Shown: positions 5,745 through 45,033 of the stretch, in pieces
How positions within the stretch are numbered: the first letter of the stretch is position 1
How the letters are laid out: every line of letters starts with the position of its first letter
Assembly: GCA_041601795.1 (NCBI GenBank)
Contig: JBFIHK010000001.1
Location: 1-48,369, forward strand
DNA: 48,369 nucleotides
From: Minisyncoccia bacterium
GTDB lineage: Bacteria > Patescibacteriota > Minisyncoccia > Phycocordibacterales > XYD1-FULL-46-19
Direction of reading: 5' to 3'
Notes under the pieces: model-generated
The model's input: the letters and a program-made list of their open reading frames with translations, nothing else
What the model was told of the DNA's origin: nothing
The model's database searches: none
Translations under genes and position numbers: made by a program

Positions 5745-6956
5745 TCATTGTAGCAAACGCCCACGTCTTTTTCTATGGTAAGACAAAGCAAAACGATGGG
5801 CTTCATTGTTAGCTAAGAGAATTTCCATTTCATACTGACGAGCTAGTGTGCCCGAACCAATTATTTCTCTTGGCTTATGATGCTTATCTTTTACTACCGC
5901 TACAACAGGAATATCAAAGCCTAAAGTGGTCAAAATTTTTTCGCCCGCTTTTAACTGATTTCTACCCCCATCTAAAACAATTAAATTAGGTAGTGGCCAC
6001 TCCAGATGATCAAAGCGACGCTCTAGAACTTCTTTTAAATTTAAAATATCATTATTTTTATCGAGTCCAGCCCCTTTAATTTTAAATTTTCTATAATCAC
6101 TTTTAAAAGGTGTACCATCTTTTATCACTGTCATTACCCCAATAGTATCCTTACCACTGGTATGAGCAATATCGTAAGCCTCGACCCGTAAAGATGCGCT
6201 ACTTTTTTTATTTTGCAACAAAGCAATATCATTGACGTGTTTTAAAGTAAAAATTCTATCCCGATAAACAGCCGCTAGCTCAAAATTCTGTTTTAAAATA
6301 GCTCGCTTCATGTCTATATTTACCTTTTTAATCAAAGCCGATTTTTTTCCTTGGAAAAATAAGCGTAAATGATTAATGGTTCTGGCATATTCTTTTTTGG
6401 TTATTTGCTTGCTACACACCCCTGGACATAAACCTACTTGAGCCGAAAAACAAGACTGACCAGTTTCGGGTTTACATTTATCTCTAAAAGGAAAAATTTT
6501 TCTAATTATTTTTAAAGCTGTTTTTAATTCTGACGCCTTAGGAAAAGGGCCGAAAGTATATTTAATGTCTGTTGGTTCCCATACTTCTACCAAGTCTTTA
6601 CCTCGAACGGCCAAAACTCTAGGCCAATCTTCTTTGGTTACGATCACATAAAGATAACTCTTATCGTCTTTGGCTTTAGTATTGCCGCTAGGTTTATGTT
6701 TTTTAATTAAACTTGACTCTAGAATTAAAGCCTCCAACACAGAATCTGTTTGATGCCATTTTAATTCATCGGCCCCTTCCACAATATTAGCCACCAAAGG
6801 CCCTCGAGTATCCATGAGGTCAGACCCAAAATAACTACTTACTCTATCTTTTAGGGAAGTAGCTTTCCCGATATAGGTTATTTTGTTTTGAGCTAGAAAA
6901 AAATAAACTCCAGGTTCATCAGGTAGTTTGTATTTTTTTAAATCTTGTTTTTTCAT
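5745..6956 (-). CDS. uvrC: excinuclease ABC subunit C, short form
   Basis: GIY-YIG (PGVYFF, YIGKA), Cys cluster CKPETGQSCFSAQVGLCPGVC, UVR helix FELAAVYRDRIFTLKHV and RNase H-like nuclease block RVEAYDIAHTSG. Ends at EAHRFALSYHRKRRG. ATG at 6956 has GGAG 9 nt upstream; the track start at 6974 is TTG. Confidence 0.9.
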   Translation of the reverse strand: MKKQDLKKYKLPDEPGVYFFLAQNKITYIGKATSLKDRVSSYFGSDLMDTRGPLVANIVEGADELKWHQTDSVLEALILESSLIKKHKPSGNTKAKDDKSYLYVIVTKEDWPRVLAVRGKDLVEVWEPTDIKYTFGPFPKASELKTALKIIRKIFPFRDKCKPETGQSCFSAQVGLCPGVCSKQITKKEYARTINHLRLFFQGKKSALIKKVNIDMKRAILKQNFELAAVYRDRIFTLKHVNDIALLQNKKSSASLRVEAYDIAHTSGKDTIGVMTVIKDGTPFKSDYRKFKIKGAGLDKNNDILNLKEVLERRFDHLEWPLPNLIVLDGGRNQLKAGEKILTTLGFDIPVVAVVKDKHHKPREIIGSGTLARQYEMEILLANNEAHRFALSYHRKRRGRLLQ

Positions 6957-6978
6957 AAAATAACTCCATGACAAGAAA

Positions 6979-9633
6979 CTAGTCCTTGTGTTTTTTATTT
7001 TTCGCTTGTTTTAATATTTTATTTAAATAAAAACCAGTATGGGTGTCTGTTTGGGCTATTTCTTCTGGAGTACCCTTGGCCACTAGCTTCCCCCCTCCAG
7101 AACCCCCTTCTGGTCCCATATCTATAACATAATCAGCATTTTTAATCACATCTAAATTATGTTCAATTACAACCACCGTATTACCTTTATCAACTAAACG
7201 TTGTAAAATGGCTACCAAATTTTTAACATCTTCATAATGAAGACCCACTGTTGGCTCATCTAAAATATAAATGGATTTTTGTACAAACGGACGATACAAT
7301 TCTGAAGATATTTTAACCCTTTGGGCTTCTCCGCCAGACAAAGTGGTGGCCGACTGACCAAGTTCTAAATAACCCAAGCCAACTTCATTTAAGGTTTTCA
7401 AACGATCGCTAATGGCTGGAATATCACGAAAAAATTCAAATGCCTCCTCAACCGTCATATGTAAAACATCGCTAATATTTTTATTTTTATATTTTACCTC
7501 TAAAGTCTCTTTTTGGAATCGACTTCCTAAACAAACATCACAAGTCACATAAACTGTTGGCAAAAAATGCATTTCAACGGCAATAGTACCGTTTCCTCCA
7601 CAAGCTTCACAACGTCCACCTTTGACATTAAAAGAAAAACGTCCGGGTTTCCACCCTCTGACTCTAGCTGTTTCTGTACTAGCAAAAACTTCTCTAATCC
7701 AAGTAAAGGCACCAGTATAAGTGGCTGGATTAGACCGTGGAGTCCGCCCAATAGGAGACTGATCGATCAAAATAGAGCGTCCTAAATATTCACTACCAGC
7801 AAACTCGTCACAATTAAAAATTTCATTTGATCTAGCTTTTCGATTAAACTTAGCTTGAAGATTTTTATATAAAATTTCATAGACAAAACTAGATTTACCC
7901 GAACCAGACACTCCGGTAATAGCTACCAATTTACCTAAAGGAACATCAACATTTAAATTTTTAATATTAAAAATTTTACCTCCCTTTACTCTTAACTTAC
8001 CCTTATTAGCTTTTCTTCTAGTTTCTGGTAAAGGCACTCTCTTTTCACCTCGTAGATAATCTACCGTTAAGGAATTGTAATTATTAGTTTTACTGGTCAA
8101 TAATTTTTCTGTTTTATCTGCTACCACTACACTGCCACCATGAACACCAGCCCCAGGGCCAATGTCAACCAAAAAGTCAGAAGCAAAAATAGTGTCCTCA
8201 TCGTGTTCGACCACAATAATAGTGTTACCCAAATCGCGCAAATCAAGTAGAGTTTGAATTAATTTGTCATTATCTCGACTATGCAAACCAATAGTCGGTT
8301 CATCCAAGACATATAAAGTACCCACCAAACGCGACCCCAATTGAGAAGCTAAGCGAATTCTTTGAGCCTCACCCCCAGATAAAGTATTGGCCCGCCTATC
8401 TAAAGTAATATAATCTAAACCAACATCTAACAAAAATTTAAGCCTAGACTCTATTTCTCTTAAAATCATTTCGGCAATTTGTTTATCTTTTTTACTTAAA
8501 GTTAAATTTTTTATAAATTCACTAGCTTCTTTAATAGACAAACCAGTAAAGCCGACGATGTTTTTTTTATCTTTAGAACTCTCTAAAAACACCTGCAAAG
8601 CCTCCTTCCGCAACCGATAACCACTACAGTCAGGACAAGATTTAGTACTATATAAATTTTTAGTCCCTAAACCATGGCAAGTTGGACACGCTCCATAAGG
8701 TGAATTAAAAGAAAAAAGTCTAGGTTCTATTTCTGGAAAAGAAAAACCATCTCGGGGGCAAGCAAATTTAGCCGACAACAATATTTCAATTAAAGACTCG
8801 GCTAACACATTGTTTTTAAGACTTGCCCGACCAATCACCACTCGAACTAAACCCTCAGATTCATCTAAAGCTCTTTCTACTCCTTCTACTAGCCGACTGT
8901 AAGCATTATCATAAGAAGCTTCTTCTACTTTAGCTTTTAAAGATGTCTTAGTTAAATCTTGAGCCTTAAAATCGGCTATTTCTATTTCATCTATTAATAC
9001 ATCTATATCGTGTTTTTTATTTCGAGCTAACTCTATTCTGTCTCTTAAATTATATCTTTTTTCATCTATCAACACTTCCGAATAACCTTTGTCTAATAAA
9101 TCATACAACAGTTGATAATATTCTCCTTTGCGCCCCCTTATAACTGGAGAGTAAATTTTTACAGTTTCAGCAGTCGGTTTTTTAATATTGTCTTTAATTT
9201 GATCTAAGACAAAATTAACTATTTCATCGTTAGACAATTTATTTATTTCTTGCCCACACAAAGGACAAAAAGGTTTACCGATACGAGCATACAAGACTCG
9301 TAAGTAATCATAAATCTCTGTAATAGTGGCCACAGTTGATCGTGGGTTTTGCGACCTAGATTTCTGGTCAATAGAAATAGCCGGAGACAAACCAGTAATT
9401 TCATCCACTTCTGGTTTTTGCATTTGACGTAAAAATTGCCTTGCATAAGAAGATAAAGATTCAACATAGCGTCTTTGTCCCTCGGCAAAAATAGTATCAA
9501 AAGCAAGACTTGATTTACCTGAACCAGACAGTCCAGCAATAACTACCATCTCGTCGCGGGGTATTTCTAAGTCTATATTTTTTAAATTATGTGTCTTAGC
9601 TCCTTTAATTGTTATTTTTTTCTCGTCTTTCAC
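6979..9633 (-). CDS. uvrA: excinuclease ABC subunit A
   Basis: 884 aa, GTG start. Two ABC modules (GLSGSGKSS, GVSGSGKSS; two LSGGEAQR signatures) and zinc-finger Cys pairs. Confidence 0.95.
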   Translation of the reverse strand: MKDEKKITIKGAKTHNLKNIDLEIPRDEMVVIAGLSGSGKSSLAFDTIFAEGQRRYVESLSSYARQFLRQMQKPEVDEITGLSPAISIDQKSRSQNPRSTVATITEIYDYLRVLYARIGKPFCPLCGQEINKLSNDEIVNFVLDQIKDNIKKPTAETVKIYSPVIRGRKGEYYQLLYDLLDKGYSEVLIDEKRYNLRDRIELARNKKHDIDVLIDEIEIADFKAQDLTKTSLKAKVEEASYDNAYSRLVEGVERALDESEGLVRVVIGRASLKNNVLAESLIEILLSAKFACPRDGFSFPEIEPRLFSFNSPYGACPTCHGLGTKNLYSTKSCPDCSGYRLRKEALQVFLESSKDKKNIVGFTGLSIKEASEFIKNLTLSKKDKQIAEMILREIESRLKFLLDVGLDYITLDRRANTLSGGEAQRIRLASQLGSRLVGTLYVLDEPTIGLHSRDNDKLIQTLLDLRDLGNTIIVVEHDEDTIFASDFLVDIGPGAGVHGGSVVVADKTEKLLTSKTNNYNSLTVDYLRGEKRVPLPETRRKANKGKLRVKGGKIFNIKNLNVDVPLGKLVAITGVSGSGKSSFVYEILYKNLQAKFNRKARSNEIFNCDEFAGSEYLGRSILIDQSPIGRTPRSNPATYTGAFTWIREVFASTETARVRGWKPGRFSFNVKGGRCEACGGNGTIAVEMHFLPTVYVTCDVCLGSRFQKETLEVKYKNKNISDVLHMTVEEAFEFFRDIPAISDRLKTLNEVGLGYLELGQSATTLSGGEAQRVKISSELYRPFVQKSIYILDEPTVGLHYEDVKNLVAILQRLVDKGNTVVVIEHNLDVIKNADYVIDMGPEGGSGGGKLVAKGTPEEIAQTDTHTGFYLNKILKQAKNKKHKD

Positions 9634-9744
9634 AACTTCTTATTTAAATAATAAAACAAATCAAAAACCTCAAATTAAAATTGGCTTAAATTAGAACAAG
9701 TATAATAGCACATAAAACTAGATATTTGTAGTCGTGTCAAATAT

Positions 9745-10311
9745 TTAATATTTTCTAATGACTCCCTTAACTAAAGCCACTATTTTCAAGTCAAACTCTG
9801 GATATAGGGGTTGATATTTTTTATTAGCTGGTTCCAACCACACTAAAGTCCCCTTTTTCCGAAAATATTTCATTGTAAACTCACCGTCTATATTGGCCAC
9901 AACAATATCTCCGTCTCGAGCTGTATCGGCTTTTTCAGCTATAACCATGTCGCCATCGTCAATATGAGCTTCAATCATTGAGTCTCCGTCTACTTCCAAA
10001 ATAAAAGTTTTATCTTTTTTTTCTATTAAAAAGTCATTTAAATTTAAAGTATCAAAAGTGTGCTCCGCTTCTACTGACATCGGTAGCCCAGCGGTAACAG
10101 AACCTAAAAGTGGCACTTCTAGAAAACTAGCTTCTGGCACTAATCGACCCAAGTGATCTTTAGCCACTATTTTTTGCTCCACCATTTTACTAACTACTTT
10201 ATAGACAGCATTTTTAGACTTGAAGCCAAACAAAGTCATCATTTCAGCATAAGTGGGCAAGCGTCTGTGTTTATCATAAAAAACTAATAATATTTTTTTA
10301 TAATGATCCAT
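9745..10311 (-). CDS. lexA: LexA repressor (S24 autopeptidase)
   Basis: 188 aa. Winged-helix N-terminus, cleavage site VTAG|LPM, catalytic GDSM serine and the VKGVIRK lysine. Confidence 0.9.
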   Translation of the reverse strand: MDHYKKILLVFYDKHRRLPTYAEMMTLFGFKSKNAVYKVVSKMVEQKIVAKDHLGRLVPEASFLEVPLLGSVTAGLPMSVEAEHTFDTLNLNDFLIEKKDKTFILEVDGDSMIEAHIDDGDMVIAEKADTARDGDIVVANIDGEFTMKYFRKKGTLVWLEPANKKYQPLYPEFDLKIVALVKGVIRKY

Positions 10312-38939: not shown

Positions 38940-40538
38940 TTATTCGTAACCTCTACTAATTGCAGATTCAAGTGTATTGTAAACAATTGGCATTTTATTT
39001 TTAAAATCTTCTAAAGTTATTGATTCTGCAACACTAACCGCATATGATATTTTTTCATCACTCGAGATTTCATCTTTCTCTTTTTTATGATCTTCAGGAT
39101 AATATTCTTCAATGGTTTCAGTTTCTAGTATATGTATTTGTTCTCCTTCTTTTAACCAAGGATGTGCTTCTTTAAACTTTGTAAAATTAGACTCTTGTTC
39201 GGAATTAGGTAAATCTAAAAGAAAAACTACCTTGTCTTTATATACACCATTGGTCAAAAGAGGTGTGTAGCACTGGTTTATTGCATGATAAATCTCTTTA
39301 TGTTTTTCAGAATCACCACGAGCAAATATTATTTTAATATTTAAACATTTCTTATTTTCACTATAAAATCTTTCAATAATTTTATTTATAAAATGATATT
39401 CAGTTTGACCTTCTACAATTATAAAATTACTTGGTAATAATAAATCATTTGGACTACCTCCCAGTAATTGATAAATAGAATTTAATCTATCCTGTTCGCT
39501 TTCCACTTTCTCTAACCTAGAATCACCTTCTATCTTAACAACATTGAATATATTTTGATTTTCATAATTTTCATTAGCAAAAACTGAAGAATGGGTATTT
39601 ATAAAAACCTGACCACCATTATCAATAATATCTCTAAGAGCTTTTTTTAATGATCTTTGTGCTGACGGGTGTAAATGTAGTTCGGCTTCATCAATTAAAA
39701 ATATGAAATTTCTAGCAATACCTTGTTCTTTTCTATAGTCTGCATATGATTGAATGATTGCTAGCATTATTGCACGCTGCATACCATCTCCTTTATTTTC
39801 TGCTTTAGTCTTTATGCCATCATCTATTTCAGTATCAAAGCCTTTTAACATGTCCTCAATCTTTGGATTCTGTATACTAAAATCGACAGTAGTATCTTCG
39901 GAAAATTGTTTTTGAAGATAAAATTCAACTTTCTTCTCTAGAGAGTCTACTGAATTTCTAAAAACAGATCCTTCAGAATTAAACAACTCATCAAATAGTT
40001 TTATGAACTCCTTGTATTTAGGATCATTATTTATTACATCTGATAAAACACCAGACAACATCTCAGCAATTGGGGTTTTTGATTTATAACCAGAAACATC
40101 TCCTAACTTTATCTTAGTAGTAACATATTCTATTTTAGGTAAAAAATAATTTAATGCTGCATCAAAACCTGTAGGATTTCCCACACTTTCTCCATTTACA
40201 ATCATAAACCTTTTATCATCTTCGCTAGTCTTCTCTAAAATAAATTCGTCGTTTTCTCCGAGCACGTTTTCGATTACTTTCTTGTATCTTTCATTTTCCA
40301 GATTTTCTAAAGAACTTCCGACATTACTATAGTGGACCCTTATCTTAATAGGATTTGTTTTCTGATGTTTATAATAGTTGGAGTCCACAGTTTTTCCAGA
40401 ATCAAACCAATCTAGAGCTTCAAACAAATTTGTTTTACCATGATTATTTTGACCAACAAATACGTTAAAATCATTTACATCAAAATCATATCTCTTAATT
40501 GATCTAAAATTTTCAATTTCTATCCTAGTAATTTTCAT
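38940..40538 (-). CDS. OLD-family-like ATPase-Toprim nuclease
   Basis: 532 aa. IEIENFRSI, Walker A GQNNHGKTN, signature-like GDGMQR, Walker B FLIDEAELHLHP, INTHSS, then the Toprim-type IIVEGQTEYHF. Confidence 0.75.
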   Translation of the reverse strand: MKITRIEIENFRSIKRYDFDVNDFNVFVGQNNHGKTNLFEALDWFDSGKTVDSNYYKHQKTNPIKIRVHYSNVGSSLENLENERYKKVIENVLGENDEFILEKTSEDDKRFMIVNGESVGNPTGFDAALNYFLPKIEYVTTKIKLGDVSGYKSKTPIAEMLSGVLSDVINNDPKYKEFIKLFDELFNSEGSVFRNSVDSLEKKVEFYLQKQFSEDTTVDFSIQNPKIEDMLKGFDTEIDDGIKTKAENKGDGMQRAIMLAIIQSYADYRKEQGIARNFIFLIDEAELHLHPSAQRSLKKALRDIIDNGGQVFINTHSSVFANENYENQNIFNVVKIEGDSRLEKVESEQDRLNSIYQLLGGSPNDLLLPSNFIIVEGQTEYHFINKIIERFYSENKKCLNIKIIFARGDSEKHKEIYHAINQCYTPLLTNGVYKDKVVFLLDLPNSEQESNFTKFKEAHPWLKEGEQIHILETETIEEYYPEDHKKEKDEISSDEKISYAVSVAESITLEDFKNKMPIVYNTLESAISRGYE

Positions 40539-40978: not shown

Positions 40979-41740
40979 TTATTTAGAAGGCCTTGTGTTT
41001 GTAAACTCATCTAACTTGTCAGGATGTTCTTTTAAAAGATAGCGCTGGATAACTAAATTCATGTAAGAGTTTTTTAATCTAAAAGCTCTAACCTCTGCAG
41101 GTTTATCACTAAAAGGTTGTGAGGTTTTAGATTTACCACAAGAAGGATCTTTAAATTTACCATTATGTTTAGGGCAAAGGGTTAGATATTTATGTTGGTG
41201 TTGATGTATTTCATGTGCCTCACCATTCTTTATGAATTCTATAATCTTTAAGTAATCTTCATTCAGTTCTTCAAGAACTTCTTCTGTCATTTCCCAAATG
41301 AATACATACTTGATTAAATATTTTGACCTAGGGACTTCCTTGTCATGAACATACCAAACGAACAGGATTTTTTTATTCTTCTTATACAAAGATGATTCTT
41401 TAATATGTTTATTGTTATGCTCTTCAGAATAATTAATGATATTCAAAGAAAGTGGTTCTTTGACCGTAAGTCTTCCGTTCTTTAATAATTTGAGCGGACT
41501 AGTCTTCAGTTCAACATCTAAGTGTTCTATGTCTGCACCTGCTGTACTATTCTTAGGTATACCAAAATAACCGTATTCAATAGCATATCCGACTCCAGCC
41601 TTAGTAAGGACTCGACTACTTTCGTCATCATCTACAATAGAAGACATAATTTCTTCTAGTGTCCTTCCCTCTAAATCTTTCTGGGCAATTTTCTCTAATT
41701 CCTTAACAGTCTTTATTTGCTTTAAATTTAGCTTTGACAT
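40979..41740 (-). CDS. MutH/Sau3AI-fold endonuclease, single domain (candidate restriction subunit)
   Basis: 253 aa. KAGVGYAIEYGYFG...GADIEHLDVELKT gives D70-x6-E77-x-K79, the same spacing and numbering as E. coli MutH D70/E77/K79. Confidence 0.85.
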   Translation of the reverse strand: MSKLNLKQIKTVKELEKIAQKDLEGRTLEEIMSSIVDDDESSRVLTKAGVGYAIEYGYFGIPKNSTAGADIEHLDVELKTSPLKLLKNGRLTVKEPLSLNIINYSEEHNNKHIKESSLYKKNKKILFVWYVHDKEVPRSKYLIKYVFIWEMTEEVLEELNEDYLKIIEFIKNGEAHEIHQHQHKYLTLCPKHNGKFKDPSCGKSKTSQPFSDKPAEVRAFRLKNSYMNLVIQRYLLKEHPDKLDEFTNTRPSK

Positions 41741-41804
41741 ATATAGAGAAATATACTAAAAATCTTGATCTTACACAATTTATGTGGCACAAATTATAGA
41801 CAGC

Positions 41805-41833
41805 TTGATCGAAAATTATAAGAATGTTAATAT
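41805..41833 (+). promoter_or_regulatory. candidate methyltransferase promoter whose -35 hexamer contains GATC
   Basis: TTGATC (41805-41810)-N17-TAATAT (41828-41833). The ATG at 41844 follows 10 nt after the -10. Confidence 0.35.
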
Positions 41834-41843
41834 GATAATACTT

Positions 41844-43109
41844 ATGAAAAAACCAATTAAAAAAATAAGAGTCGTTGAGTTATTTGCTGGTGTCGGTGGC
41901 TTTAGACTTGGACTAGAAGGCCATAAAGGAAGCAGGAAGTCTCATCATAATAATTATGAAACTATTTGGTTCAATCAGTGGGAGCCATCCACAAAAAGAC
42001 AACATGCTCATGAAACTTATGTAAAGAATTTTGGAGATGTAGATGAGTATACAAATATTGATGTAGCAAAAGTTACAGATAAGGTTCCTGACCACGACCT
42101 ACTAGTTGGTGGATTTCCTTGTCAGGATTACTCCGTAGCGAGAAATCTATCTTCTTCTGCAGGACTTGAGGGAAAGAAAGGTGTTCTATGGTGGTCGATC
42201 TATAACATCTTAGAAAAGAAAGGAAAGAAAGCTCCTGATTATTTGATGCTAGAAAATGTAGATAGACTTCTAGTGTCTCCAGCTTCTAGAAGAGGTCGTG
42301 ATTTTGCGATTATACTTTCTTCATTAAACAAACTTGGGTATATGGTTGAATGGCGAATTATTAATGCCGCAGAATATGGATTTCCTCAAAGAAGGAAAAG
42401 GATTTTTATAATGGGATATAAAAAGGGTTCGGAAATTGAAAAGAAATTTAAGAAAGAGAAAGATGTAGAAAAATGGCTTAGCAAAACAGGTCTTACTCAA
42501 AAAGCATTTCCTGCAAATATTGTAAGTGGTTTTAATTATTTTGAATTAAATTCTGACCCTGTTGAAGTGTCTAATAATTTCAATACAGAAAATCCAAAAA
42601 CATCACCATTTCAAAATAGTGGAATAATGTTTGATGGAAAAGTTTACACAGCAAAAACAAAAGAAAATTACATAGGAAAATTCGTAACACTTGGAGACAT
42701 TCTGATTTCAGACAAAGAAGTTCCTGAAGAGTATTACATCAACAAAGATGACTTAAAAAAATGGAAATATTTGAAAGGAGCAAAAAATGAGCCTCGAAAA
42801 GCAGCCAGTGGTTTTGAATTCATATACAAGGAAGGATCTATGACATTCCCAGACGCATTAGATAGGGCCTCTAGGACAATCATTACTGGTGAAGGTGGAC
42901 CAACACCATCTAGGTTCAAGCATGTTATTGAAACAAAGAAAGGTTTACGCAGATTAACACCCATTGAACTAGAAAGATTGTGTATGTTCCCTGATTACCA
43001 CACAGATGGTCACACTGACTCAAAACGAGCTTTCTTTATGGGTAATGCTTTGGTTGTTGGAGTTATAGACAGATTAGGTAAAGTCTTGGCAGATTTACAC
43101 AATAGTTAA
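41844..43109 (+). CDS. DNA (cytosine-5)-methyltransferase
   Basis: Motif I ELFAGVGG, IV GGFPCQDYS, VI LENV, VIII QRRKR and X GNALVV. Start ambiguous: ATG 41844, ATG 41832 or GTG 41784. Confidence 0.9.
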   Translation: MKKPIKKIRVVELFAGVGGFRLGLEGHKGSRKSHHNNYETIWFNQWEPSTKRQHAHETYVKNFGDVDEYTNIDVAKVTDKVPDHDLLVGGFPCQDYSVARNLSSSAGLEGKKGVLWWSIYNILEKKGKKAPDYLMLENVDRLLVSPASRRGRDFAIILSSLNKLGYMVEWRIINAAEYGFPQRRKRIFIMGYKKGSEIEKKFKKEKDVEKWLSKTGLTQKAFPANIVSGFNYFELNSDPVEVSNNFNTENPKTSPFQNSGIMFDGKVYTAKTKENYIGKFVTLGDILISDKEVPEEYYINKDDLKKWKYLKGAKNEPRKAASGFEFIYKEGSMTFPDALDRASRTIITGEGGPTPSRFKHVIETKKGLRRLTPIELERLCMFPDYHTDGHTDSKRAFFMGNALVVGVIDRLGKVLADLHNS

Positions 43110-43112
43110 AAA

Positions 43113-44888
43113 TTAGGTGAAGTGTTCAACCAAATCTGTTATTAAATTATCACTTTTATAATAACCAATAGGATTAAATTCCTTAGTTTTGGTATCAAAA
43201 TAAATCAAATTTTCTTTTTTCAAGAAAGCTTTTTCTTCAAACTTTTTCCATTTATCCAAAGTAGCCTCAACCACTTCTTTAAGTTCATTTTTCTTCCACG
43301 AAGTTCCAATCAAAGTATATGTAGCTATCATAGTTACAGCAATGTCACCATATCTTAAACCAAATCCACATTTACCAACAAACCATCCATTAACAGGTTT
43401 TCTAGCTTGTTTTTTTAATAGCTGAACCTCTCGATAAACGAGGTATGAAAGAACATATTTAGAGTAGTTGCTTTTAGTAGTAAGTATCTTAAATATTTCA
43501 TCTGAAAATAGAAAGTCTTCAGATAAATTTTTAGGGTTTTTAATTTTCTCAGGAAAGCCTGAGGCATAGGCCATTTTTATAAATTCATTACGATTAATCA
43601 CGTCCTCTTTCTTAATATACAAATTATTAAGACTGTTTAAAAATTCTCCTTTTTTTCTTTCATAATACAAGTCAAATTCTTCAAATATGTACTTCTGAAG
43701 AGCTGCTTGAGAATCATGATTAGACAATAAATCTCCCTTACTAATTGAGGATTGATTATTAGTAGCTAATGAAACTGGACCAGTAATATTATTGTATTTC
43801 TCAGTATCATTCTGAACAATTACTTTCAATAAGACTTCTTTATCTTTGAAAGGATTTTTTGCAAACTCTTTTTTTAAAAATCTTTTATATATATGACTTA
43901 GTGTAAATGATGTTTGACCACCATTAATGATTTGAGGGTCTTTTATTGTTATCTCACCAGTTCTTTTTTTACCAGTATTTTCTGTATACAAGGATTCTGT
44001 AGAGAGCATAGTAATTCCGTTGTTCAATAAAACAAAATCATTGGTATCCTTCTTGAGAATAGAATCTTCAATCTTTTTGTTAACACCCTTAGCATTCATA
44101 CCCAGATAAGTTCTTGGATTATATTTCAGTATTGAATTCTTATATCTAGTAAGTGCCTTTGCTATTTCTTCAGTAGGAATAAATATCATAAATATTGTAC
44201 ATACCCCATATTCTGTCTTTACTTCATAATTAATCGGTTTTTTATCAGCACTCGATAACAAAATATTGAAACTCAACTTATTTTCATTAAAAAAGTCATC
44301 TCTGATATAAGGAAAAAGTAATTCATCATAAACCTTATAATAATTAAAAACTTTGATATCCCATTCTTTTGGAAAATGAGTAGTGAGTATATATTTTTTT
44401 TGTAATTCAGTGAGATTAGCCACGAGTACAACCACAAATTTATACTCTGAAGGATTTTTTAAATTTCTTAACTTCTTTTGAAACTCAAGAATCTTTTTAT
44501 TATACTGATGCCCATCAAAGCTCTTTTTCTCACCAGTGGTGACTCTTTCTAAATCCATCCTCCATAAATCCTTGTTATCTATGTCAGTTTTTACATAACC
44601 CCTAGCACTGTTTCTGAATTTTGCCTGAATTAAATAAACTAACTTTTCCTCATTATTTATATAGTACGCATCAATACCACCATCATTAGCTCCTTCAGTA
44701 ACCAGATTCTCTCTTTGTTTAAAATCTAAAATACCAAAGTAACTTTTAATAAAAAAATGTATCAGGGCCCTTGACCTCGCACCCTCGATGTCAACCTTAC
44801 CGTTCTCAGGTAGATATAAATCTAAATTAGATTCTGCATTGACTCTTATTTTATCAATGATTTTTACTAAGACGTTATATTTATTCAT
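43113..44888 (-). CDS. AIPR family abortive-infection protein with Mrr-like N-terminal nuclease motif
   Basis: 591 aa. N-terminal GANDGGIDAYY...YLIQAKF (Mrr-cat-like D...QxK) and AIPR core NPRTYLG...VNKKI...LLNNGITM...IINGGQTS. Confidence 0.85.
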   Translation of the reverse strand: MNKYNVLVKIIDKIRVNAESNLDLYLPENGKVDIEGARSRALIHFFIKSYFGILDFKQRENLVTEGANDGGIDAYYINNEEKLVYLIQAKFRNSARGYVKTDIDNKDLWRMDLERVTTGEKKSFDGHQYNKKILEFQKKLRNLKNPSEYKFVVVLVANLTELQKKYILTTHFPKEWDIKVFNYYKVYDELLFPYIRDDFFNENKLSFNILLSSADKKPINYEVKTEYGVCTIFMIFIPTEEIAKALTRYKNSILKYNPRTYLGMNAKGVNKKIEDSILKKDTNDFVLLNNGITMLSTESLYTENTGKKRTGEITIKDPQIINGGQTSFTLSHIYKRFLKKEFAKNPFKDKEVLLKVIVQNDTEKYNNITGPVSLATNNQSSISKGDLLSNHDSQAALQKYIFEEFDLYYERKKGEFLNSLNNLYIKKEDVINRNEFIKMAYASGFPEKIKNPKNLSEDFLFSDEIFKILTTKSNYSKYVLSYLVYREVQLLKKQARKPVNGWFVGKCGFGLRYGDIAVTMIATYTLIGTSWKKNELKEVVEATLDKWKKFEEKAFLKKENLIYFDTKTKEFNPIGYYKSDNLITDLVEHFT

Positions 44889-44962
44889 AATAATGAATCA
44901 TACCAAATAACAGAGTTTTATATAATTGAAGCACCTCGTACTCCGAACCTACCTCACACTAG

Positions 44963-45033
44963 CTGCCGGACTAGGACTCGAACCTAGATTAACTGGACCA
45001 AAACCAGTCGTCCTACCATTAGACGATCCGGCA
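44963..45033 (-). tRNA. tRNA-Gln (anticodon UUG), CCA not encoded
   Basis: Reverse complement TGCCGGATCGTCTAATGGTAGGACGACTGGTTTTGGTCCAGTTAATCTAGGTTCGAGTCCTAGTCCGGCAG. U1:A72 and G73 as in bacterial tRNA-Gln, anticodon loop UUUUGGU, T-loop TTCGAGT. Confidence 0.9.

Follow-up and report, generated by a model that had tools for sequence, protein, structure and literature searches.

The window analysed here, 48,369 nt of contig JBFIHK010000001.1 from an uncultured Minisyncoccia bacterium (assembly GCA_041601795.1), belongs to a 564-kb Patescibacteria genome of 35.5% G+C that is assembled in 34 contigs and is 98% complete. Three genes concern us: a gene of the AIPR/AbiU abortive-infection family, a C5-cytosine DNA methyltransferase (MTase) gene on which it converges tail to tail, and a restriction endonuclease (REase) gene that diverges from the MTase gene. 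A first-pass annotation, made from the DNA letters and their open reading frames (ORFs), had singled out the short gap between the first two genes and an Mrr-like motif in the AIPR protein, and had overlooked the third gene, a Sau3AI/MutH-like REase and the partner of the MTase. The AIPR–MTase–REase unit is a triad in which the divergent REase is the cognate partner of the MTase. Its features are as follows, in window coordinates:

43113..44888, minus strand: AIPR/AbiU-family gene, intact, 591 amino acids (aa) (ORF; PF10592; PADLOC AbiU)
44289..44888, minus strand: predicted N-terminal PD-(D/E)xK nuclease domain, residues 1 to ~200 (AlphaFold2 fold order; Foldseek; hhalign)
44619..44684, minus strand: putative catalytic signature D69-GG-I-D73...Q88-A-K90 (invariant residues; aligns to Mrr_cat DGGID...QxK)
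43230..44126, minus strand: AIPR core, residues 255-553, with NNGIT and INGGQT (PF10592; ParB/DUF262-like by Foldseek)
43107..43115, both strands meet: tail-to-tail junction TAA-AAA-TTA (read directly in the sequence)
41844..43109, plus strand: C5-cytosine DNA MTase, 421 aa from Met21, ORF from 41784 (PF00145; TIGR00675; PADLOC MTase_II)
40979..41740, minus strand: MutH/Sau3AI-like REase, single domain, 253 aa (PF02976, E 6.9e-25; NF040973, 183.5 bits)

As the first-pass annotation had proposed, the 591-aa protein is a member of the AIPR/AbiU family by Pfam, PADLOC, motifs and architecture alike. Pfam assigns it to PF10592 with 124.4 bits against a cut-off of 25 (E 9.9e-36), over residues 255-553 and profile positions 2-302 of 308, and a profile search of the genome returns the identical span; PADLOC calls it AbiU (E 5.2e-35) through the core only, residues 250-530 being aligned to profile positions 241-480 of 537. 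The motifs that had been quoted are all there (DGGIDAYY at residues 69-76, IQAKF at 87-91, NNGITM at 289-294 and INGGQTS at 321-327), and their key residues hold up across the family, with N289, N290, T293, N322, G324, Q325 and T326 invariant in 40 homologues. The protein has 1088 homologues in our searches, and its gene has a G+C content of 29.1% against 35.5% for the genome.

An AlphaFold2 model based on an alignment of 40 homologues (confidence scores pLDDT 86.9 and pTM 0.83) suggests a layout in which an N-terminal nuclease is followed by a ParB/DUF262-like core and then by a C-terminal domain that is helical. The whole chain has no significant match in the PDB by Foldseek, and the family's hidden Markov model (HMM) profile has no relevant match among PDB sequences. 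Taken by themselves, residues 1 to ~200 are modelled with the alpha-beta-beta-beta-alpha-beta order typical of PD-(D/E)xK nucleases; D73 would stand at the start of the strand formed by residues 74-78 and Q88-A-K90 would go with strand 83-89 (strands 2 and 3 of the model), and all 53 N-terminal domains compared have D69, G71, D73, Q88, K90 and R92. All Foldseek matches of the domain model to the PDB are below threshold (E at least 0.04), with MspJI the best (E 0.043), and the top of this sub-threshold list consists mostly of PD-(D/E)xK proteins (MspJI, EcoO109I, HamA and Can2), together with the RNA polymerase subunit Rpb5. The domain is thus predicted to be a PD-(D/E)xK nuclease, presumably an active one, in agreement with the assignment of AbiU-1 to the PD-(D/E)XK superfamily (PMC13099982) and the description of AbiUi as nuclease-like (PMC13064643).

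How far this domain resembles Mrr, a type IV enzyme whose catalytic domain is Mrr_cat (PF04471), matters for how the neighbouring MTase is understood, because the first-pass annotation saw a paradox in an Mrr-type domain next to a 5-methylcytosine (m5C) methyltransferase. A resemblance in the catalytic core does stand: the two share the D-GGID...QxK signature, and a profile-profile alignment by hhalign to a template of 23 Mrr_cat domains from genomes of the same phylum places DGGID...IQ(A/S)K on the Mrr catalytic motif over 27 core columns, with P 4.2e-4 and a probability of only 34% (30 column-shuffled controls and one reversed control all gave P of at least 0.0078). Membership in the Mrr family does not. 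Pfam finds no family at all in residues 1-258 at E up to 10, and hence no Mrr_N; the domain has no HMM match to Mrr_cat, and a search with PF04471 of the host genome's own proteins returns 0 matches. Unlike Mrr, moreover, the AIPR protein begins with its nuclease domain at the N-terminus, a separate Mrr_N being undetected in residues 1-258, and has its third and fourth strands parted by a large insertion. The core shared with Mrr is the catalytic part and, as far as known, not the part that reads methylation. "Mrr-like" would therefore seem a fair word for the catalytic core of a domain that does not appear, by model, to belong to Mrr; the paradox falls away, since only a generic PD-(D/E)xK core is shared, and nothing that we found points to methyl-dependence of this core.

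The second half of the protein contains the AIPR core. Against BFVD, Foldseek matches the core to a phage AIPR protein (E 7.5e-12) and to several DUF262 proteins of the GmrSD N-terminal type (E 1e-3 to 7e-3, prob 1.0), with weaker matches to one DndB-like (E 0.087) and one ParB protein (E 0.13); in the PDB the nearest relative is pNOB8 ParB-N, at E 0.4 only. Residues 251-591 match AIPR alone in Pfam, and an hhalign comparison of AIPR with three Gammaproteobacteria DndB sequences, made because a kinship of AIPR and DndB has been published, gave no signal, these templates being too thin. The architecture is thus reminiscent of GmrSD, BrxU and SspE, in which a ParB-like sensor is fused to a nuclease and whose GmrSD N-terminal domains the AIPR core resembles at the level of the fold. 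It differs from them in that its nuclease is N-terminal and of the PD-(D/E)xK type, theirs being a C-terminal DUF1524/HNH domain, and in that it has no Pfam DUF262 match. A ParB-superfamily domain is on record for the AbiU1/AIPR/COG1479 family (PMC3632139), so that both the nuclease and the ParB-like core have already been published for AbiU1/AIPR.

Turning to the restriction-modification (R-M) pair, the MTase is matched by PF00145 (E 7.5e-61), TIGR00675 (226.7 bits) and PADLOC MTase_II (544 bits), and Met21 of its ORF, at 41844, lies ahead of the FAGVGG motif. The REase reaches 183.5 bits against NF040973, below the equivalog cut-off of 300, and covers only profile positions 7-226 of 475; the REases of two related cassettes (L013 and L009 in our locus numbering) pass with 429.5 and 436.5 bits. 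A 255-aa enzyme from a further cassette, L005, is a close relative (E 2.5e-126), whereas the full-length REases of the other cassettes are distant (E ~1e-23). It is the MutH-like N-terminal catalytic half of a Sau3AI-type enzyme, with D70, E77 and K79 legible in the translation and the C-terminal Sau3AI domain lost. M.Sau3AI is a C5-cytosine methylase. The pair thus parallels the Sau3AI system in having a REase of the MutH/Sau3AI family and a C5-cytosine MTase, and differs from it in the catalytic-half REase of 253 aa and in the third gene, AIPR.

The two genes diverge across 103 nt with the following feature:

41741..41843, no strand assigned: control region between the divergent REase and MTase genes, with GATC at 41767 and 41807 (promoter-like sites found)

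GATC occurs in these 103 nt at a density of 19 per kb, compared with 1.6 per kb in the window, and at the scale of the genome its observed/expected ratio of 0.81 is the lowest among G+C-containing 4-mer palindromes. The R-M pair is probably GATC-specific and of the m5C type; the rarity of GATC fits this specificity and falls short of proof. GATC avoidance within the AIPR gene was also considered and rejected, as the 0 sites in its 1776 bp do not differ significantly from the ~2.8 expected at the window rate.

The junction between the AIPR and MTase genes was the focus of the first-pass annotation, which read it correctly: the MTase stop TAA (43107-43109) is followed by AAA (43110-43112) and by TTA (43113-43115), the minus-strand AIPR stop, positions 43100-43119 being caatagTTAAAAATTAggtg. 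It had also held that no terminator fits here, and a consensus scan that included bidirectional terminators indeed finds no terminator-like site at the junction. The nearest plus-strand candidate lies ~450 nt inside the AIPR gene, and zero sites occur on the minus strand within the MTase gene. In folding of positions 43050-43180, the plus strand forms a weak hairpin rich in A and U (z -2.2) and the minus strand no notable structure (z -0.8). Because the junction has no terminator-like site and folds only weakly, read-through into the opposing gene is likely, as for many gene pairs of this genome. The AIPR and REase genes both lie on the minus strand, with the MTase gene inverted between them; with no minus-strand terminator-like site between 43113 and 41740, a transcript from the AIPR or tRNA-Gln promoter could conceivably continue antisense through the MTase gene and into the REase gene.

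A tight junction is nevertheless nothing special in this genome. By a crude ORF-based gene call, 8 of its 53 convergent gene pairs (15%) are separated by 3 nt or less or overlap, and 14 of 53 (26%) by 20 nt or less. This distribution, together with the co-directional order seen in most relatives of the cassette (below), identifies the 3-nt gap as ordinary compaction in the host genome and not a special design feature. On the same grounds, selection for tight 3′ abutment was dropped as the main point.

What does set the cassette apart is its distribution. AIPR genes within R-M neighbourhoods that include cytosine methylases have been described since 2008 (Iyer et al. 2008, PMC2292703; Makarova et al. 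2012/2013, PMC3506569, PMC3632139), so the association with methyltransferases to which the first-pass annotation had alluded is indeed a published one; one such gene encodes the MZA protein MzaE, with which our protein shares this type of neighbourhood. Orthology with MzaE was ruled out (NF041935, 51.8 bits against an equivalog cut-off of 1050). Among the homologues of our AIPR protein we find 14 R-M-linked copies: this locus, L001, L005, L009 and ten co-directional or partial loci. An m5C MTase is present in 12 of the 12 clade loci with a visible neighbourhood, and a Sau3AI/MutH-like REase, intact or split, in 11 of these 12, the exception being L001, which has an unrelated 385-aa S24 protein instead. 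The sample was found by searching with intact AIPR proteins, so that retention of AIPR is partly built into these counts.

Two gene orders occur within this set. In the three protein clusters nearest to ours (74%, 58% and 55% identity) AIPR is always convergent on the m5C MTase, and in two of the three a MutH-type nuclease diverges from the MTase; the AIPR and MTase genes, 3 nt apart here, overlap by 8, 4 and 8 nt in L001, L005 and L009, of which L009 has its cassette in a different genomic context. Relatives at 40-57% AIPR identity instead carry the order (RadC)-AIPR-REase-MTase on one strand (L013, L014, L015, L093, L095, L126, L127 and L137; L096 and L128 end at contig ends), and the end of AIPR there shares 8 nt with the beginning of the REase gene or directly adjoins it. 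Ahead of AIPR, a RadC/JAB-domain gene is found in L013, L014, L015, L096, L126 and L128, and is split in L093; in L013-L015 this gene ends 4 nt into AIPR, which suggests that it is part of the co-directional cassette. No RadC gene lies beside AIPR at our locus.

Phylogenies agree with a single origin. An IQ-TREE analysis of 85 homologues puts the ten R-M-linked copies then known on one branch with support 100, and the four convergent cassettes form a monophyletic group (support 98) that is nested within the co-directional type, with the co-directional L013 as sister; in a FastTree analysis of 163 homologues, exactly 14 sequences, all of them R-M-linked copies, descend from the ancestor that these copies share (support 1.0). 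The convergent layout therefore derives, by one rearrangement, from an ancestral operon with the co-directional order (RadC)-AIPR-REase-MTase, and the co-inheritance of AIPR with the MTase is real, acquired once and restricted to one small lineage. A layout favouring co-inheritance had been suggested from the junction; the linkage is borne out, preferential to this MTase clade and exclusive to these 14 copies, but the convergent gap is no special mark of it, as 8 of 53 convergent pairs in the genome are as tight and most clade members are co-directional.

One explanation for the linkage would be that AIPR is functionally tied to the MTase, its ParB/DUF262-like core reading the modification state that the MTase lays down, in the way that SspE reads phosphorothioate and that GmrSD and BrxU read modified cytosines. 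In that case there would be two nucleases for one MTase, or AIPR would add a further restriction activity from which the same methylation gives protection. Several observations are consistent with such a tie: the MTase is found in every informative clade locus, AIPR and MTase are kept in L015, L096 and L001 despite a split or replaced REase, the 3′ ends of the two genes abut or overlap in four diverged lineages, and the core bears its fold-level resemblance to the DUF262 of GmrSD-type enzymes. In a more specific form of the idea, the clade AIPR might be a modification-state-reading nuclease whose core would use the m5C marks of the linked MTase to tell self from non-self, much as SspE does with phosphorothioate. 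If true, one methylase would serve two mechanistically different nucleases, and there would be a first handle on AIPR control. We consider the general tie unlikely, though the foremost of the alternatives, and the SspE-like version improbable.

The reasons come largely from homologues outside the clade. For these, a first MTase HMM, built from the cassette clade only, proved too specific to pick up further m5C MTases, and the census instead rests on Pfam tallies of neighbours and on motif scans confirmed by Pfam. Among 135 immediate neighbours at 77 genome loci there is one N6_Mtase and no listed m5C MTase, and the motif scan outside the clade finds no m5C MTase within 8 kb. Some MTase accompanies ~6 of ~75 further metagenome loci: N6_N4 enzymes in L156, L178 and L188, an MmeI-like enzyme in L204, an m5C MTase in L161 and a type I enzyme in L193. 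Overall, ~6% of homologues outside the clade have any MTase nearby and ~94% of the sampled homologues of the same architecture do not, and most homologues of the ~600-aa architecture stand alone. The AIPR protein type therefore works without a dedicated methylase, in agreement with AbiUi, which gives resistance by itself in Lactococcus (PMC13064643). The catalytic and core motifs, moreover, are the same inside and outside the R-M-linked clade, and the retention of AIPR in cassettes with a damaged REase is partly circular, given that sampling started from intact AIPR proteins. In the reverse direction, one further genome in the phylum (G183, locus L129) has a same-clade Sau3AI-type pair without AIPR (REase 461 aa, MTase 61% identity), so that AIPR is an add-on, an optional third gene.

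Pairings of AIPR with methylases have nonetheless arisen independently (L156, L161, L178, L188 and the genome G241), and these speak for a tie. At L156 (186-3527), a non-clade AIPR of 38% identity converges on a beta-class N6_N4 MTase across a gap of 25 nt; the tail-to-tail arrangement of AIPR and methylase thus recurs with an unrelated methylase class. G241, a genome of the same class as ours, has an m5C MTase-R.ThaI-Vsr-AIPR operon (L131, G241:C9:9000-23000, 6210-10006, minus strand), in which R.ThaI is identified by PF15514 (E 3e-82) and the 580-aa AIPR belongs to a different subfamily; this is a second, independent addition of AIPR to a type II R-M system in the same phylum. At a further locus, L023 (8001-9821), a Patescibacteria-group metagenome-assembled genome contains an AIPR homologue (41% identity by tblastn) with no long ORF in translation table 11; the gene may be broken or else use a different genetic code.

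Within the clade, the REase gene is the one that is unstable, being split in L015 and L096, reduced to its catalytic half at our locus and in L005, fused in L009 and replaced in L001. The split REases lie at L015:9805-11202 (338 + 117 aa) and L096:4041-5341 (283 + 157 aa), with the adjoining AIPR intact in both and the MTase intact in L015. The 630-aa REase of L009 (11141-13033), identified as such by NF040973 at 436 bits, ends in a LexA/UmuD-like S24 peptidase domain (PF00717, E 6e-20), as do those of L010-L012 and L135; it would be unusual for a REase to be connected to a RecA-sensitive domain. The 385-aa protein of L001 (11138-12295), the closest relative of our window, has the same S24 domain as in L009 behind 250 N-terminal residues without assignment.

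This instability bears on the possibility that AIPR guards the REase, in the sense that the REase or the R-M complex would keep it latent until attacked by an anti-restriction factor of a phage. The model for such an arrangement is PrrC, which stands in this relation to EcoprrI. Coupling between R-M and Abi systems has been discussed (PMC3506569), and the overlap of the AIPR stop with the REase start in the co-directional cassettes would suit it. Yet AIPR is intact in L015, L096 and L001, the very cassettes with a broken or replaced REase, the REase at our locus has no C-terminal Sau3AI domain and is parted from AIPR by an inverted MTase gene, and there is no hint of an interaction surface; we think a guarding role quite improbable.

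The surroundings of the cassette raise the question of whether its genes belong together at all. To the right lies the following feature:

44962..45033, minus strand: tRNA-Gln(ttg) (ARAGORN), 73 nt upstream of the AIPR start

Beyond the tRNA gene are genes for DUF192, DnaX and Dus proteins. The tRNA-Gln gene also adjoins the cassette in L005, where a serine recombinase gene lies just past the REase, and is 3.8 kb away in L001. The cassette is found at or near this Dus-DnaX-tRNA-Gln site in our window, in L001 and in L005, with differing combinations of AIPR, MTase and REase alleles, and this mix of alleles indicates in-place replacement of modules at a hotspot. To the left of the REase the island has decayed remnants and an OLD-family ATPase-Toprim nuclease gene (38940-40538, minus strand; PADLOC Old, E 1.9e-59) with no partner gene visible.

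Unrelated defence genes might thus simply have piled up in a tRNA-Gln hotspot, their adjacency being fortuitous. The OLD-family nuclease and the remnants in the same island would fit this, as would the known clustering of such genes in defence islands (PMC3506569) and a gap that is ordinary for the host genome. It is, however, hard to reconcile with an exclusive clade of 14 members that has the same partners in different genomic contexts and two gene orders, or with the rarity of both genes: in a sample of 300 further genomes from the phylum, 2 have the MTase clade and 5 have AIPR, with no co-occurrence. Given this exclusiveness and rarity, repeated chance adjacency is unlikely, and we regard fortuitous stacking as very improbable.

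The reading that we favour, with a probability of roughly 0.55, is that AIPR is an independent second-line nuclease of the AbiU type that has been co-selected and co-transferred with a Sau3AI-type R-M pair. The locus would then be a three-gene defence cassette in a tRNA-Gln-adjacent island, composed of the REase-MTase pair and an AbiU/AIPR effector. The latter would act as a self-contained, single-polypeptide second-line nuclease, as solitary AbiU does, with its ParB-like module sensing or binding nucleic acid or a nucleoside triphosphate and thereby licensing the nuclease during infection. It would be kept beside the R-M pair through selection for layered defence and through joint transfer, and not through any need for the MTase, of which we infer it to be independent. 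The precedent is AbiU (AbiUi/AbiU1) of Lactococcus lactis, which belongs to the same Pfam and PADLOC family and is likewise a single polypeptide of ~590 aa in which an N-terminal PD-(D/E)xK-type nuclease would precede the AIPR core; it is reported to delay phage transcription and to afford modest protection (PMC13064643). The difference lies in the setting, as the Patescibacteria clade of our copy is always embedded in a Sau3AI-type R-M cassette.

Some features of the clade sit less comfortably with an independent AIPR, and could suggest a functional dependence tighter than mere stacking, be it a use of the methylation by AIPR or a guarding of the REase. The linkage survives in AIPR proteins that share as little as 40% identity, although the AIPR and MTase identities are incongruent: our locus and L005 share 85% identity in the MTase and 55% in AIPR, and L013 and L014 share 89% and 46%, respectively. 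Likewise, L093 combines a type-A AIPR with an MTase nearer to type B. Such incongruence shows that modules were swapped between cassettes while the association persisted. The 8-nt overlap of AIPR and REase genes in co-directional cassettes suggests coupled expression, and in L015, L096 and L001 it is the REase that is split or replaced while AIPR and the MTase are intact.

The AIPR/AbiU family is widespread, and both the fusion of its ParB-like core to nucleases and its frequent linkage to R-M systems were already published; the locus therefore reveals no new kind of system. What it adds is a compact, bounded clade that always joins an AbiU-type nuclease to one simple type II R-M pair, and that offers two gene orders along with natural variants in which the REase is broken or replaced. 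It thereby provides a small three-gene unit with which to ask whether an AIPR nuclease needs an MTase, guards it or simply travels with it.

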